DNA from: Atractiella rhizophila
Taxonomy: Eukaryota
Reading direction: 5' to 3'
Assembly: GCA_021432655.1 (NCBI GenBank)
Contig: MU271183.1
Span: 245,177-265,176, forward strand
Length of the DNA stretch: 20,000 nucleotides
This document shows positions 4,157 to 17,471 of this stretch, one piece after another. The first letter of the stretch is position 1, and every line of letters begins with the position of its first letter. The translations under genes were made by a program, and so were the position numbers. The notes beneath the pieces were generated by a model. It saw only the letters and a program-made list of their open reading frames with translations, was not told where the DNA came from and made no database searches.

Positions 4157-5579
4157 ATGTCGTTGCAACCCACGTGGTATGGATACGTAGCAGACATCAC
4201 CGAAGTGGAGAAGGTCGTGCACGCTTGTGTGGTTGGGAAGCTCGTTGATATGCCTAGAAGGTTAGACGAGCAGGAGAGGGAAGAGCTAATCCAGCACGGC
4301 ACCGTCTTCGTATTTGAGGAAGGCAAAAGCGGGATGATGCGATGGACCGATCACTTGAAGGTGCATGTCCCCCTCGAACCTTAAGACAGAGGAACGTAAA
4401 GAACTGACTGGTTGTCATTGTCCCTTGATCAATCAATAATATCAGTGTGGGCAGTCCAGAATGTCCGGCGTCTTTCTCACTTATACTGAACGCGACTATC
4501 CACCAGGCGCGCTTCCTCTTACCAGAGCCTCCATCTGTATCAACAGACAGGTATCGAACGGGACAGTCGAGCGGTGGCACCTCGTCGCGTATTACAATCG
4601 GGAGTATCGTTCGCTTCCACGAGTTAGTAACGATCCAGCCCTCAAATCTGTCATTGTGCCATTTAAAATGTATGTGAACAACTCGTCGAGGAACCGAAGC
4701 GGGACAGGCGGATTGTTTGGCGGGAGTTCCACCAGTAGTAAGAGTCCCCCGAACCCCCCGTCTGTACGTGCAGCCATCCCCCCACCCCGTCCTTCAACTG
4801 CGACTTTTCCTGCGCACGCTCAAGCTGCTCCCTCCCCTTCTTACTCCCAATCCCAAGCCCAACAGCAACCTCGTCCGACCTTATTCGGGAGAACCGGTCT
4901 ACCCTCTTCAACAAACACCGCAAACGCTCGGCTTCCTCCCATACAGACACGTCCTCCTGCACAACCCCAAACTCAACCCTCTCGCGGACTCTTCGGTGGA
5001 ATGAGAGCCTCGACTCCCCCGCCTCAAGCCACACGGCCACCGGCTCCGCCTCAATCATCAGGAGGTCTCTTCGCTAGAAGAGCACCAAGTCCCGGACCTC
5101 AAATGCCGCAGCAGCCTCAGCAAGCCAGAGGAATGTTCGGCATGAGGGCCCCCTCTCCGCAACCAACGCAATCCCAACCCCTCCGGTCCGCATCCCCCGT
5201 CTCCTCCTCCCGCTCTTCCTGGGGACGCTCCTCCAACCCCTCTCCCACCTCGAGAACGAGCAGCGAATACAATCACTCTCACTACCAACCGGACGAGATG
5301 ATGGACGTTGATCGGGAAATGGGAGGCTTGGGCATCGGGATACAAAGGCCCTCGACTGGGATGGGGATGGGGAGGCCGAGGCTCCCTAGCGTCAGCGGAA
5401 TGAGTGGAATGAGTGGGTTGGGGAGTTATCAGAGAGGGAGGAGGATGAGTGTAGATATGAGAGGACCAGATGATACTGAGTACGTCAACCCCTCATTGCA
5501 GAAGTAGGGAGAAAAAGACTAATGCGATGTTTTCGTGTTTTCCAGGATGTTACAAGCGATAACGAGAGGAACGAGATGA
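4157..5579 (+). CDS. Gti1/Pac2 family (WOPR domain; Wor1/Ryp1-like) transcription factor. Exons 4157-4360, 4446-5479, 5546-5579.
   Basis: PTWYGYV...ACVVGKL..MPRRL..QER..LIQHGTVFVFEEGKSGMMRWTD...SRMSGVFLTYTE...HLVAYY are WOPR motifs. Introns GTGCAT..CAG (4361-4445) and GTACGT..ACTAAT..CAG (5480-5545). The C-terminus is P/Q/S/G-rich. Confidence 0.9.
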
Positions 5580-10245: not shown

Positions 10246-12694
10246 ATGGCCTCGCAAGAAACGCTCTCCAAGTTCTTCGCACACGTCGACTCCCTCTCCC
10301 CCGCCTTCATCGACCGTCTCTCCAAAGCAGTCTCCATCCCCTCAGTCTCGGGAGAGCCAGTCAGGAGGAAGTTCTGCTTCGAGATGGCAGACTGGCTCGA
10401 GGGAGAGCTCAAGGCTGTCGGGGTTAGTACCGAGAAACGTAGGTTGTCATTTGATCACGTATTTGTTTTGTGTTTGCTTTTGATCCAGCTCGATGTGTGG
10501 ATTTGGATTTGCTAATGATTTGATCGATTGGATGCATAGGTGATCTCGGAAAGCATGTTATGGATGGGAAGGAACTCGATCTGCCGCCTATCGTGCTAGG
10601 AAAGATCGGAGAAGATAAGAACAAAAAGACCATTTTACTCTATGGTTCGTCTCCCTCCATCCACCCAATTCTGTCCTTGCACGTATTCTATTCTCATGTA
10701 CTTTTCCTACTTTTCCTACAGGCCACTACGATGTCCAACCCGTAAACACCTCCTTCTCTCCCAATACTGCGAAGTTTCTCACTCCAATGGCTGTACACAG
10801 GCCGAAAAATCAGATGGCTGGACCTATGGTCAGTCGCCATCACTTTCTCCTTTCCTCGCTTCTCAACCGATAATTTATCACAGAGCCCTTCGTCCTAACA
10901 CACGAGAAGTCGACCGACCGCGTCCGTTTTTCCTCGTCTCGTTTCTTCGATCATATTCAGACCAAACCTGATTGGTACCGGCGATGCGGTTGATAGTTGT
11001 TTGGGAGGGGATCTACAGATGATAAAGGTCCCGTGCTTGGATGGATCAACGTCTTGCAAGCACACAAGGAATTGGGCATCGATTTACCTGTCAACCTCCG
11101 GTTCTGCTTCGAAGGTTCGTCGTCCCACGCCATCGAAAGGGCACGATCGATCGCTGACTTTTTTGTTTCGTATTGCTCGCTCCAAATGTCTGGTATAGGA
11201 ATGGAAGAGAATGGATCAGAGGGACTCGATGCTCTCGTTAGAGAGGAAGCTGGGAAATATTTCAAAGATGTGGATGCGGTTTGTATTTCGGATAATTATT
11301 GGTTAGGAACTGAAACCCCTTGCTTGAGTTCGTCATCTTCTCCCCCTTATCTTTTGTGTTTTCCATCACCCTGCAAATTTTGATCGTTCTTTGGCATCAG
11401 CCTATGGTTTGCGAGGTATCGCATATTACAAAGCCACTATCTCTGGTCCTGGAGCAGACCTACACTCTGGAGTGTTCGGTGCGTCACTCTCTTCTGATGC
11501 CCTTTGATCAACGAAATTAATGGTTGCTGTATGGATAGGCGGAACGGTGCATGAACCCATGACCGATCTCTTCCACCTCTTCTCGAAGCTTGTATCCCCT
11601 CAAGGTAAAATCCTCGTACCGGGATTGAACGAATTGGTGGACCCCTTGACGGAGGAAGAGAGGTCTGTCTCCTCTGAGCTTTGATATACATCTGTACTAA
11701 TGGACGGCGATAAATAGGAAGCGATACGAAAAGATCGACTTCTCCGTCTCCGTACGACATTCTCTTTGAACCGCACATTACACGCTGACTGGGGAACGGC
11801 TTTCCTTGGTCCCCTAGAACTTCGCTACAGCCTCGGTTGGCGCGTCTACGACCCTTAGTGAGGATAAAATCACCACGCTGATGGGTAGGATGCGGTATCC
11901 TTCGCTCAGCTTGCACGGAATTGAGGGAGCGTTTTATGGCGCTGGGTCGAAGGTACGCCTCGTCTGCCCAACCTGTCCCTTGCAACCCTTTACGGAGCTT
12001 GGGAAATGACACTGCTTGGATTTGGTGCAGACTGTTATTCCCGCTACTGTTCACGGTTCGTCTATGTTTCTCTAGTTGGGAGAAGAGTGCTGATGACGCG
12101 TTGGAATAAAGGAAAGTTCTCCATCCGTCTTGTCCCCAGTTTGACTGTGGCCAACGTTACTCCGTTGGTGGAAAAATACATCAAAGTTTGCCTTCCCTCT
12201 CTCTCATGAAGTTTGCCTGACCATGAATGCGAATGGATTGATAGGACGAATTCACCAAACTGAACAGCAAGAACAAGCTCTCCTTTGAGCTTTCCCACGG
12301 CGGAGAGAGCTGGATCACAGATCCGAATCATTATAGCTTCGTAGCCGCTTCCAAAGCTACAAAGACGGTGTATGGGAAGGAACCTGATTTCACGAGAGAG
12401 GGAGGGAGCATTCCGATCGTCTTGAGTTTCGAACAGGCGCTTAAGAAGAGCGTCCTCTTGCTACCTAGTACGCCTCATTCCTTCCTTTCTCCTTTCTCCT
12501 TTCTCCATCTTTCCATCTCTCCCCGCCTTGCTTCGTGGTTGGCAACATTCCGGTCTGATGTTGCTTGGTTGGTAGTGGGTAGAGGAGACGATGGCGCGCA
12601 TTCGACCAACGAGAAACTCGATCTCTCTAATTATATCCAGGGCACGAAATTGTTGGGAGCTTACTTGCATGAGGTCGGCGCTGCTCAAGCGTGA
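10246..12694 (+). CDS. DUG1: Cytosolic Cys-Gly metallodipeptidase (M20A; DUG1/CNDP2 type), about 15 exons
   Basis: Motifs in order: [95 protein letters not shown]. Fourteen GT-AG introns can be placed in frame. Confidence 0.95.
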
Positions 12695-13024: not shown

Positions 13025-14345
13025 TCAGAGGAAGACAGGTCGCAGGTTTCTCCTCCTAGTATCCGTTCGACAAGTTGGGCAACGCCTTCGACGGGCTAGC
13101 GCCTGATCGATGCATTCCAAGCAGAAGAGGTGTCCACACGGAGTCAAACGAGCATTGGTAACGGGTTCGAGGCAGATCGCACAGGGGACTTGGACTATGC
13201 CTAATCTCATCCATCAGACGACTGAGTTCCGATCAATAACTGTACATACCAGTTTCTCCCGTGAACCCTTGTGAAGAGTCAGATTTGAGATTTCGAAGGA
13301 ACGTCGCAGTTTTGCCTAGTTCGGCGAGCGCATTGCCGATCTCTCTATCTCTTTCTGATTGCTCCAAGTTTTGGCAGACGGTCAACAGCTGTTCAGCTTC
13401 CATCCACAGATCTCTATCTTCTGGGGTAAGGGAAGAAGACATCAAGACCTCGGGTGAAAGCTTGCAGAGGCGATGATAATCCGCAGAGAGTGAAGATGTT
13501 GGTTCAACTCGCGCTCCATCACCTAAAGTGACTGCGGCAAGGAGGGAATGACGAAGTGTTTTAACCTCTTGCAAGAAATCACTCGGACTTGGAACAGCTC
13601 GGACAGGTTGGAACGATTCTGGACGACTTGAGCTCGCCAATGACGGTGGAGGTGACAGAGGGGTAGACGGAACTCCCGAATCGAAGTAAGTGTTGCTGGA
13701 GCGACCTGAAATGGATGAAGGATTGCGTAGAGAAGAATTCGACGCGCGGCGTGAACTTGCTGCTGAAGGCTCGATAGCGCTCGCCGATTCACCATCGGCT
13801 GTTGCTCTTGACTTCCCTTTCTCACTGGTGGGTTTGTTGTCCATCAGTCCATCCTCCCTTGGGGTGCGGGCGGAGACAGCTGTACGCGACAGCGATTGGA
13901 GGCGCCGGAGTGCTTCCAAAGCTTTCTCTAAAGCTTTCACGTCTTCACCCCCCAGAAGAGTGTCTAGAGCACGAAGGTCGTCCTCAACAATGTTGATGGA
14001 GGATAGTTCGCTACTTGTGGGGACTGTCCATTTGTGAGCGTGTTGTTGCTGGTAACTCCCAACCCTCTCTGAGAAGTTGAGGCATTGCGTTCCGCCTGTA
14101 ATGACAGTGTCAATTCCGGGATCACACAAGCGCAAAGTGCATACACCAAGAGAGCCAACCAATCTTCGCATAATACTCCGCGTGAATTGCGAGTGGTGAG
14201 GGTGAGGGTGTTGACAATGTGGTGCGAGCATCTTCGAAAATGGCACTGTCGTCGTCTATGTCCCCTTCACAATCAGAGTTTTCTAATCTGAGCTCTATGC
14301 CGCTTGAATTGAGCTCAGGACTTGGGTGGCTTATTGGTGTATCTG
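13025..14345 (-). CDS. 3' part of a large protein ending in a C3HC4 RING finger (putative E3 ligase). Exons ~14345-14145, 14095-13250, 13200-13025.
   Basis: The terminal exon gives CAICLEPVTNARLTPCGHLFCLECIDQALARRRRCPTC. Two 49-nt introns: GTATGT..TAG (13249-13201) and GTATGC..TTGAC..CAG (14144-14096). The upstream exon reads ENSDCEGDIDDDSAIFEDARTTLSTPSP. No convincing start codon in normal orientation. Confidence 0.85.
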
Positions 14346-16224
14346 AAAACCGGACGGTGGGAGTTTCTCCCCACCTTACAGTCGGAATTAAGCGAAAGTG
14401 CAGTAACGGACTTTGGAAGCGAGGCGCTCACTTTCGTAAGATGTGATAGCTGTTATTTGTAGAGGCATAAACGTGTATCTTTCGAGACCCCAGACGACAG
14501 TAACCAAGCGAGGGACTACTCATACTAACTAAACTTGGGGTCGTACTAGAGCTCACTGACCAGCCGAGAGGTCTTATCAGAGTAACTCTCCACCCTCATC
14601 TCTATGGTATACAGAGACTATGGAACTAGAATCGTACCGAGAGATCCTAGAGGTCTTTTTTGTCTGCGAAGCAAGTGGGTTTAAGTGATAAGTAACTAAA
14701 CGGACGCGATAAGGTTGCAAGTCCGTGGAGACATACGAAGATCCGAAAACTCTTAGAGTGAGATCTGCACTCTAAACCAGAAGAAGTAAGAAGATTAAGT
14801 TTCCTATAAAAAGTCGTATCTGTCTGCGACTAGTAAGTAGTAATCGTAGTTTTATTGTGACCAGTGGCGTTAGGAGGGCACATACTTGTGTAATAGGTCC
14901 GGTAGGAGTGCCGAAGGGGGAGGGACGTGAGAGGGAGTGGCGGTGCCAGCGGTTGCGTGAGCTCGTGACTTGGAAACGTACTACCTGTCCGTGCGTTGCC
15001 GGTGTGCTAAGGGTGAAGGAGGCGGCTAGCGTTAGGAAAGGAGCACGGACTTGGAGTTGGCTAATGAAGACTTAGCTGTAGTCGTGGTCGATTAGCGTAC
15101 GGCTGTAATCTCCTCTACTCCCTTGTTTCCGACTTGCGTTAAGCTCAAGCGAAGGGAAGCGTTGTCAGAAGAAGAGGAGGTAGAGGTGAAAGTCGTTCAG
15201 AGTTGCTGGACCGTCGAGCATATCCTGCTGAGGTACAACTCGTGCTAGGTCTTCCGTGCCTTGGAGCACGCGTGCTTTCACGTGGACGAGGCAGTTGTTC
15301 CTGGCACTCCTATAGCTCAAGGCGCTTACCTAGTTCGCTGCTGCTACCAGGGTGTTCTTAGCAATTAGGAAGAGGGGGTGGACAGGAGGGACGATGAGGT
15401 GGAAGCCCGGACTTGTCTTCTGCCAGAGCCAGAGCTTCACAATTACCTTCTCAAGGCAGCGACCTATCATAACAAGTTTCAAGCCTCCTTCTTCTCAAAG
15501 CACGACCCCATGCCCCGCGAAACCGCGTCAACTGCGACCCCTGCGCCTCCAACGTCAAGCTTTGACTTTGGCTTCGCCTTTGCTGTCTCAGACTCCTCTT
15601 GCTCGGCCTATGCCTATTACTTGGCTGGCTATCGCTTCTATCCAGGAGGCTTACATCCTCGCTACGACTCGCCAGCGGTCTCGTTGTAGACAGTTCGTCA
15701 AGTCTCCGCTCCCTACAGTCCCTCTCAACGCTAACAGGACAAACGTCCTTCGAACTCTGGGCCAACCTTTCGTTAAACCTCTAACATGTCCTACTTTTTC
15801 GAAAGACACTTGACACAGTGTTTTGAAAGGAGTGTTATAGTCTTGAGTTCCATGTAGAGTAAAAGAAGACGACACAGCCAATGAGTGCCAACAACATCGA
15901 TGTGTTTCAGGAACTGGTATTCGATGGGCAAGAGCTGAGACGCCCGGGAAGACGAAGAAGTGTGGAAGTCCTAGCAAGTCAAGACCTCTGCCTACATAGA
16001 CACGACCCCCTCGAATATGCCGCGTAGTTCCCCTCCCCTTTACCACTGTGAAGCGTGCACCTACACAGTGGACACCTTAATGTCAATGAGCTCCCTACGG
16101 TGCTATTGAACTTCGCCGTGCGAGTGCTCCCATTCAACAACAGGTCGGAAAAGAGGTCTAATGACTGTCCGAACATTGTTTCGCTCTCATTATAGTAGAT
16201 CTTACAGGTACCCTAGGTCCCGAA
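14346..16224. other. Reversed (not complemented) block. Its left-to-right complement encodes the upstream exons of a C2H2-finger protein, probably the same gene as the RING CDS.
   Basis: The complement read left to right has a stop-free 1005-nt exon (14846-15850) and introns at 14429-14479, 14591-14646, 14672-14743, 14768-14845, 15851-15898 and 16131-16182 (GTAAGT..TACTGAC..AAG). It encodes FCELCHKTFLTISELK|LHKVLDH (C-x2-C-x12-H-x4-H). The left boundary is approximate (14290-14430), and the small 5' exons are less certain than the large one. Confidence 0.9.
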
Positions 16225-16249
16225 NNNNNNNNNNNNNNNNNNNNNNNNN
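16225..16249. other. Assembly gap, 25 N
   Basis: Run of 25 N. Confidence 1.
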
Positions 16250-16414
16250 ATCCCTACTCCCACCTCTCAATGAGACTACTCTGGAGAGTCGACCAGTCAC
16301 TCGAGATCATGCTGGGGTTCAAATCAATCATACTCATCAGGGAGCGAACCAAATGATAGGAAAAAACCCCAGAGCTTTCTGTGTGCAATATGGAGATGTT
16401 TCTTGTCGATAGTG
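16250..16414. repeat. Mirror copy (same bases in reverse order, not complemented) of 14443-14604, imperfect
   Basis: 16250 ATCCCTACTCCCACCTCTCAATGAGACTACTCTGGAGAGTCGACCAGTCACTCGAGATCATGCTGGGGTTCAAATCAATCATACTCATCAGGGAGCGAACC... matches 14604->14443 read backwards, with a few substitutions and small indels. Confidence 0.95.
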
Positions 16415-17024
16415 CCAAATGATTCTACCCGCCACAAAGCATGGTGGAAGAGGAAAGCAGTCCCTGTTATTCAGCTCGTCCACAATTACTTCTTGAAGCA
16501 GAGGATCAAGACAACGTCTACCTCAAATCAACGACTGAGTCTGCACAAAAGAATCCATCATGCAAGGAGGGCAACGGTGGCACACCAACAATTTGAAGAT
16601 AACAAAAAGATCACACACCTGTCTAAATGCTCTTTCTTCTCCAAATCCCCTCCCACACCTCTCACCTCTCGCATTCAAGCCAGCACAAAACCAATGTTCC
16701 ACTCTTCCCTCCCCATCCTCCCTCGTCCTCCTCCTCTCCTCTCCCACCACCGGCTCTCCCAAGCAATCCTCACCCCTCCATGTCGCGCACCCGCTCTCCC
16801 TGATCTCGACCTCCCGGCTTCCGATATCGGATCGGAAGTATCTGTGGCTGTCGAGAAGGGTGGAGGAAGGAAAGGAAAGACGACAGAAGGGACAGTAGTT
16901 GTGGGAGGTGTTGAGGTGTTGGGAGATTTGGAAGGGGTAGGAGAAGTGGCGGAGAGTGGGACACCTGTTCAGAGTTCCATGGAGTTAGATTGCATACTAT
17001 TCGGATAATCGAAGAAACGCACAA

Positions 17025-17471
17025 ATGACAGGTTGGCATGTTGAGCACCTAAGTGAACCTCAGAAACCAGAGTTGTCTACCAGAATCGAAAGCGCCGTAG
17101 TAATGCTCAGATCAATCTTCAGGGAACCTCATATATCATACGGTAATGCTGATGCTGTTGTGGATGCAATGATGTTCGTTATGGACCAGTTCCCCAGTCG
17201 TTCACTCTCGCCCCATGACTGCATTTCGGATCCGGGGTTATCGCATCCAACGAACAAAACCACAAGTCGATTCTTTGTTGGGAAAATTATAGGTTATGAC
17301 ATGGCGGGACGAGTTCTTCATAAGTCTGAAGCCATGAAGCAAAGGCCCTTTCTTTTTGTTACGCTCCGGAGGACACGAATCCCTCTAAGGAAGGGTTATG
17401 AGAGAATACCAGTCTATCAATGTCAACTTCTCTTTCTGCAGAGTTATCAGAGAATACTAGTCTGTCAATGA
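17025..17471 (+). CDS. Hypothetical ORF, possibly a fragment
   Basis: 148-aa ORF whose first half looks globular (ELSTRIESAVVMLRSIF...DAVVDAMMFVMDQF). No recognised motif, and the end runs into a tandem duplication. Confidence 0.2.
   Translation: MTGWHVEHLSEPQKPELSTRIESAVVMLRSIFREPHISYGNADAVVDAMMFVMDQFPSRSLSPHDCISDPGLSHPTNKTTSRFFVGKIIGYDMAGRVLHKSEAMKQRPFLFVTLRRTRIPLRKGYERIPVYQCQLLFLQSYQRILVCQ

Follow-up and report, generated by a model that had tools for sequence, protein, structure and literature searches.

Does a segment of about 1.9 kb that gives only nonsense in its six normal reading frames represent real DNA of Atractiella rhizophila, and if not, what does it conceal? In the initial annotation of the window (the whole stretch of 20,000 nucleotides analysed here), positions 14346-16224 were held to be written backwards and to contain a spliced zinc-finger gene readable only as the un-reversed complement. 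The cause was sought in a software orientation error during the extension of a contig into the neighbouring 25-N gap, or in a later manipulation of the data. Our analysis leads to a closely related reading. Positions 14385-16224, a mirror block of 1840 nt, are very probably genuine genome sequence that lies at its proper place but is stored 3'→5' and uncomplemented, a data artefact whose likeliest cause is a step of assembly or gap filling. The neighbourhood is as described, the block adjoining a run of exactly 25 N (16225-16249) that is the sole N run in the window. Soft-masking provides no clue to the origin of the block, the letters of the window being all upper case.

The direction of the block was evaluated with strand-symmetric Markov models (orders 1-4), for which both strands of the window outside the block served as training data. 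Such a model is blind to a reverse complement and sensitive to a plain reverse. For the segment 14346-16224, the log-likelihood of the sequence as it is minus that of the reversed sequence was -38.0, -39.5, -44.1 and -42.1 nats for orders 1, 2, 3 and 4, respectively. For 31 control blocks of 1879 nt that do not touch the block this difference was always positive, ranging from +22 to +59 for orders 1-3 and from +19 to +76 for order 4, with means of +34 to +45. The per-position direction score climbs along the whole window and drops only between ~14346 and 16297, all 600-nt windows with a negative direction sum overlap the block, and no second mirror block is seen in the window by this score. 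The richness in TAG, CTA and GTA words that had been noticed by eye is in line with this result, as CTA/TAG and GTA/TAC are the most direction-asymmetric words in the rest of the window and are rare in its normal reading.

The open reading frames point in the same direction. Over the block, the longest stop-free run amounts to 350 codons in the mirror reading and to 159 codons in the six normal frames. Of 1000 dinucleotide shuffles, none reached 350 codons (maximum 266), while 151 reached 159 codons. Hence, the reading as deposited does not exceed chance, whereas the mirror reading lies far beyond it. Within the mirror reading, the complement of 14846-15850 taken from left to right translates by machine into 335 codons that include the residues quoted in the initial annotation; the stops that would speak against a hidden gene are absent.

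To locate the edges of the block, we compared the window with contigs of public sequencing runs, namely X1 and X2, two DNA-like runs of one sample, and X3, a run with spliced joints. In X1-X4, all twelve bins of 14386-16233 have a contig depth of 0; the flanks have cover in X1-X3. Absent contig cover proves nothing, however, and the zero depth over the block was not counted as evidence; the loose ends of the contigs were used instead. Of the 1840 nt of the block, these unmatched parts display no more than 30 + 30 + 8 letters. In each of X1, X2 and X3, one contig fits the window up to 14384 and then continues with 78, 328 and 836 non-fitting letters, respectively. The first 30 letters beyond 14384 are the same in the three runs and equal the reverse of 16195-16224 at 30/30 positions. 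Neither strand of the deposited window contains this junction 30-mer, and a search for it in metagenomes gave 0 matches. An X3 contig with a length of 995 letters spans the junction from 16224 to 14384.

According to these junctions, the true plus strand after 14384 runs from 16224 down to 14385. As 14384 continues as 16224, 16223 and so on in the contigs, the left edge of the block is 14385 and the segment was reversed in place, which excludes a complement in place. Of the extent given in the initial annotation, the right end at 16224 is thus retained, while the left edge has to be moved from 14346 to 14385, the contigs of X1, X2 and X3 fitting the window through 14384. The reading frame is also open over a join of 14345 to 16224, which we regard as a coincidence, since the contigs put the join at 14384. 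The view that the block is an artefact and not real mirror DNA is borne out by the sequence data, in which the reversed form follows directly after 14384 in all three runs.

The other end of the block clarifies the nature of the gap. When the block is reversed, its stretch from 14604 down to 14425 aligns with 16250-16432 on the plus strand with 88.6% identity, including indels, over 184 columns (E 6e-62), and the match begins at the first base past the gap (16250). The sequence at 16250-16432 is therefore a second version of the far end of the block. The sites at which the two versions differ are the sites at which the contigs of X1, X2 and X3 show the other form (16289, 16353-16365 and 16381). 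In one X3 contig, the 30 letters preceding 16250 equal the reverse of 14605-14634 at 30/30 positions, and the same contig, after 77 letters that do not fit, agrees with the window again from 16444. Accordingly, only ~18 letters lie between the true end of the block (14385) and 16444, and 16250-16443 would be an alternative version of the last ~220 nt of the block. As the far end of the block matches the sequence past the gap, the two sides of the gap overlap rather than being short of sequence; the gap is an unmerged overlap, and ~200 nt near it are present twice, as two variants.

Between 16250 and 16500 the DNA-like runs contain two coexisting forms, that of the window and that of the far end of the block, with a 29-nt stretch in one form corresponding to 77 nt in the other. 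In X1, contigs continue upstream of 16250 in three different ways. The X1 depth sums at 16250-16500 are 175.3 and 102.9, compared with 270.6 in the flank, although contig depths do not equal copy numbers. The depth sums hint at two haplotypes, from a locus that would be heterozygous or dikaryotic; alternatively, the two forms may be dispersed repeat copies.

Reversing the block in silico yields one minus-strand gene from 17039 to 13025, with seven exons and a coding sequence of 2904 nt or 967 codons that contains a single stop, at its very end. With the reversal, reading frames and splice signals are recovered and connect properly with both flanks, and six of six introns of the restored gene have GT..AG ends. 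The gene had been assigned to the block alone, but it extends beyond both edges. What the block conceals are exons 3 and 4, the start of exon 5 and the end of an intron of ~654 nt.

The gene starts in normal orientation on the right flank. Exon 1 (17023-17039, minus strand) carries the ATG at 17039-17037, with an in-frame stop upstream at 17051-17049, and is followed by a 58-nt intron (16965-17022, GTGCGT..ACAG) whose joint is seen only in X3. Exon 2 (16619-16964, minus strand, 346 nt) encodes C2H2-like fingers and ends with ..CAG before a GTGTGT donor at 16618. At 16654 one X3 contig terminates in a stretch of C (CCCCCCCCCCCCTC) not present in the window, apparently an artefact of sequencing or assembly in X3.

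The donor at 16618 opens the long intron, which contains the gap and has its 3' part in the mirrored sequence at 14385-14845, with an acceptor ..CATTAG ending at 14845. Two X3 contigs start 8 letters (TTTTGATG) before 16619, and these letters are the reverse of 14846-14853. This loose end marks a splice by which the ..CATTAG acceptor at the hidden exon of 335 codons is joined to the GTGTGT donor at 16618.

Exon 3 (14846-15850, 1005 nt) is readable only as the complement from left to right. It is separated from exon 4 (15899-16130, 232 nt, mirrored) by a predicted intron of 48 nt (15851-15898, mirrored, GTACAT..TTACTCAC..GTAG). This intron splits a C2H2 finger, as the initial annotation had stated, the pattern C-x2-C-x12-H-x4-H being read across its GT-AG ends. 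A further predicted intron of 52 nt (16131-16182, mirrored, GTAAGT..CTGAC..AAAG) has an alternative in-frame acceptor at 16188, 6 nt further, which would extend it to 58 nt. Six introns had been proposed within the block. Only two whole introns, those of 48 and 52 nt, lie inside it and both are predicted only, while 14385-14845 is the 3' part of the one ~654-nt intron that contains the gap, so that a number of six is not supported.

Exon 5 spans the mirror junction. Its first 42 nt (16183-16224) are mirrored, the true sequence running straight into 14384, and its remaining 240 nt (14145-14384, minus strand) are in normal orientation. At 14263-14269, contigs of X1 and X2 contain a 6-nt insertion, which is CCTTCA in one of them and CCTTCG in the second and is missing in the window and in X3. 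The insertion is in-frame, in a part of exon 5 coding for Thr, Pro and Ser, and looks like a two-residue length polymorphism between strains. The gene continues with an intron of 49 nt (14096-14144, minus strand), exon 6 (13250-14095, minus strand, 846 nt), which matches no Pfam family, a last intron (13201-13249, minus strand) and exon 7 (13025-13200, minus strand), which encodes a C3HC4 RING finger and ends with the stop at 13027-13025. Three CT..AC joints in X3, absent from the DNA-like X1 and X2, correspond to the minus-strand introns 16965-17022, 14096-14144 and 13201-13249; the last of these is also seen in the spliced public protein KAH8930482.1.

The RING finger is the best-defined part of the product. 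On 13028-13198 (minus strand) Pfam zf-C3HC4_2 (PF13923) is matched with an E of 5.5e-12 and 45.7 bits at a cut-off of 27, and the C3HC4 pattern is found at residue 916 of the restored protein. Its best match among solved structures is RNF4, with an E of 1.2e-17 for a tandem-RING construct and ~1e-8 for single RINGs. Like the RNF4-type RING E3 ligases (PDB 4ap4, 4ppe, 3ng2, 2xeu), the protein carries its C3HC4 RING at the C-terminus, in the last 57 residues; unlike them, it has 967 residues, C2H2-type fingers and long disordered regions. In the restored model, the C2H2 pattern C-x2-4-C-x12-H-x3-5-H is matched at residues 4 and 442. The matches of exon 2 to Pfam C2H2 families are weak and below the cut-offs, the best being zf-C2H2_jaz with 16.3 bits compared with 22.6. 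The hidden exon 3 is rich in Ser, Pro, Glu and Arg and carries the first half of a C2H2 finger.

Judging from its domains, the product is probably a large, mostly disordered RING E3 ubiquitin ligase with C2H2-type fingers that may bind nucleic acid or protein. A strict pattern scan detected only 1 SUMO-interaction-like motif, at residue 661, and we therefore consider a role as a SUMO-targeted ligase of the RNF4/Slx8 type no more than a lead.

Searches for relatives led back to the same species. For this protein no homology was found outside the RING, and an exhaustive search with exon 6 among 1.84 billion representatives gave 1 match, KAH8930482.1, a public 'hypothetical protein' of 109 aa from Atractiella rhizophila whose gene lies on a contig of 292,263 bp. 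This protein corresponds exactly to the spliced C-terminus of the restored model, its start being identical to the last 51 residues of exon 6. No longer proteins matching 13236-14255 (minus strand) were found, exon 2 gave 0 longer matching proteins, and 135 pattern matches of exon 6 in metagenomes included none that was confirmed. These searches found no homologue outside the species that would confirm the hidden exon by conservation. The first 230 residues of exon 6 are undisturbed, transcribed sequence, yet they occur in no protein of the searched libraries.

The public annotation thus appears to have only a fragment of a transcribed gene, with 109 aa compared with 967 codons. Such a truncated model would fit a locus that was already broken in the deposited record. 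The three ATG-started nonsense ORFs of the deposited block were not found in the protein collection by exact look-up, a result that is uninformative on public gene calling.

The evidence also has to be weighed against other accounts of the block. The DNA might be real as deposited, as a natural rearrangement that looks mirrored or as a chance open frame without a gene. Contigs can lose rare variants, but there is no positive support for this idea, and we regard it as extraordinarily improbable. We know of no replication or recombination process that reverses a strand without complementing it, the contig 30-mers are missing from the deposited form on both strands, and the run of 350 codons exceeds that of every shuffle. 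A natural chromosomal inversion likewise leaves a segment oriented unlike its flanks. It is, however, a reverse complement and would read normally on the other strand, whereas this block is normal on neither: the six normal frames stay at or below 159 codons, within the reach of the shuffles, and the deposited form and its reverse complement both score as backwards.

If, on the other hand, the block had been complemented and not reversed, the hidden gene would lie on the plus strand, run towards the gap and diverge from the gene of the left flank. The hidden exon can indeed be read from left to right in the complement, as this would require. Against it, in X1, X2 and X3 14384 is followed by the reverse of 16224..16195 and not by the complement of 14385 onwards, both the reading frame and an RNA-like contig enter 14384 from the block's 16224 end, and the splice of 16619 to 14846 ties the 14846 end to the right flank. 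We give this account almost no credence. The chief remaining rival is that the same reversal dates from after deposition and was made in a database conversion, by the pipeline when the window was cut out, or as a deliberate control, in which case the public assembly would be intact. This appears unlikely, because a randomly placed reversal would have to land on the edge of the gap by chance, while the block begins where an extension would begin, and because 1840 nt is not a round length. Moreover, a public fragment of 109 aa from a well-transcribed gene of 967 codons would be expected if the deposit was already broken.

We therefore favour a reversal that arose when the assembly was made. The proposal of an orientation error during extension into the 25-N gap, or of a later manipulation, gains support from the finding that the block ends exactly at the gap and that its far end overlaps the sequence beyond. 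A block that ends at the gap and overlaps past it is arranged like a flank that was extended from one side and left unmerged. From this we infer that the contig ending at 14384 may have been extended by 1840 nt towards the next contig in an assembly or gap-filling step, the extension reaching the first ~200 nt of that contig. The two contigs would have been left unmerged because their overlap is only ~89% alike and contains indels, and a minimal run of 25 N would have remained. The string of the extension would then have been written with just half of the reverse-complement operation applied.

Gap filling of the PBJelly type is said to leave fixed 25-N spacers, and the initial annotation had brought it up on this ground. 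The PBJelly paper (English et al. 2012, PMC3504050), in the passages considered here, counts any run of at least 25 N as a gap and describes how reads extend one flanking contig into it; a gap is termed 'overfilled' if extensions without an identifiable overlap leave it open despite the excess sequence. The present locus resembles this outcome in that a one-sided extension of 1840 nt stops at exactly 25 N and overlaps the next contig at 88.6%. It differs in that those passages mention neither a reversed output nor a fixed remainder of 25 N, the 25 N being given as the definition of a gap. The block is, furthermore, free of frameshifts over ~1280 coding nt, which is unlike a raw long-read patch and makes PBJelly in particular a less likely source. 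AllPathsLG assemblies patched with PBJelly are described in a fungal pipeline published for another genus (PMC12923307), which speaks to plausibility only. Our literature search found no assembly-method paper for the Atractiella rhizophila genome. A search for reversed-not-complemented assembly errors, or for PBJelly together with '25 Ns' or 'overfilled', gave no account of such an artefact; one candidate, PMC4776415, was set aside, the passage in question being a figure legend only.

Two further features of the window were noted. The neighbouring open reading frame at 12248-12691 (plus strand) weakly resembles Peptidase_M20 at its end (E 3.8e-4, 20.8 bits at a cut-off of 24.6) and is probably the final exon of a metallodipeptidase gene that converges on the RING gene. 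The region 4440-5507 is G+C-rich (0.56-0.62) with a strong skew of C over G (down to -0.43), and it coincides with an open frame of 355 codons on the plus strand that has no Pfam match.

As long as the record is not corrected, read mapping, gene calls and comparative analysis across 14385-16249 will fail. The block may, furthermore, be one case of a systematic and unnoticed fault by which gap extensions were written 3'→5' in this assembly and perhaps in others of the same pipeline, a suggestion that we put forward tentatively. If it holds, each instance would break or shorten gene models, as here where 967 codons became a public model of 109 aa, and a log-odds score of words versus reversed words beside every N run would find all cases and recover the genes. 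The word-direction log-odds is very cheap and places such blocks within ~50 nt, so that whole assemblies could be screened. The value of the finding lies in the curation of the record and in this cheap screen for like faults elsewhere. For the organism itself, the block contains no new biology; it is part of an ordinary multi-exon fungal gene that is concealed by a data error.
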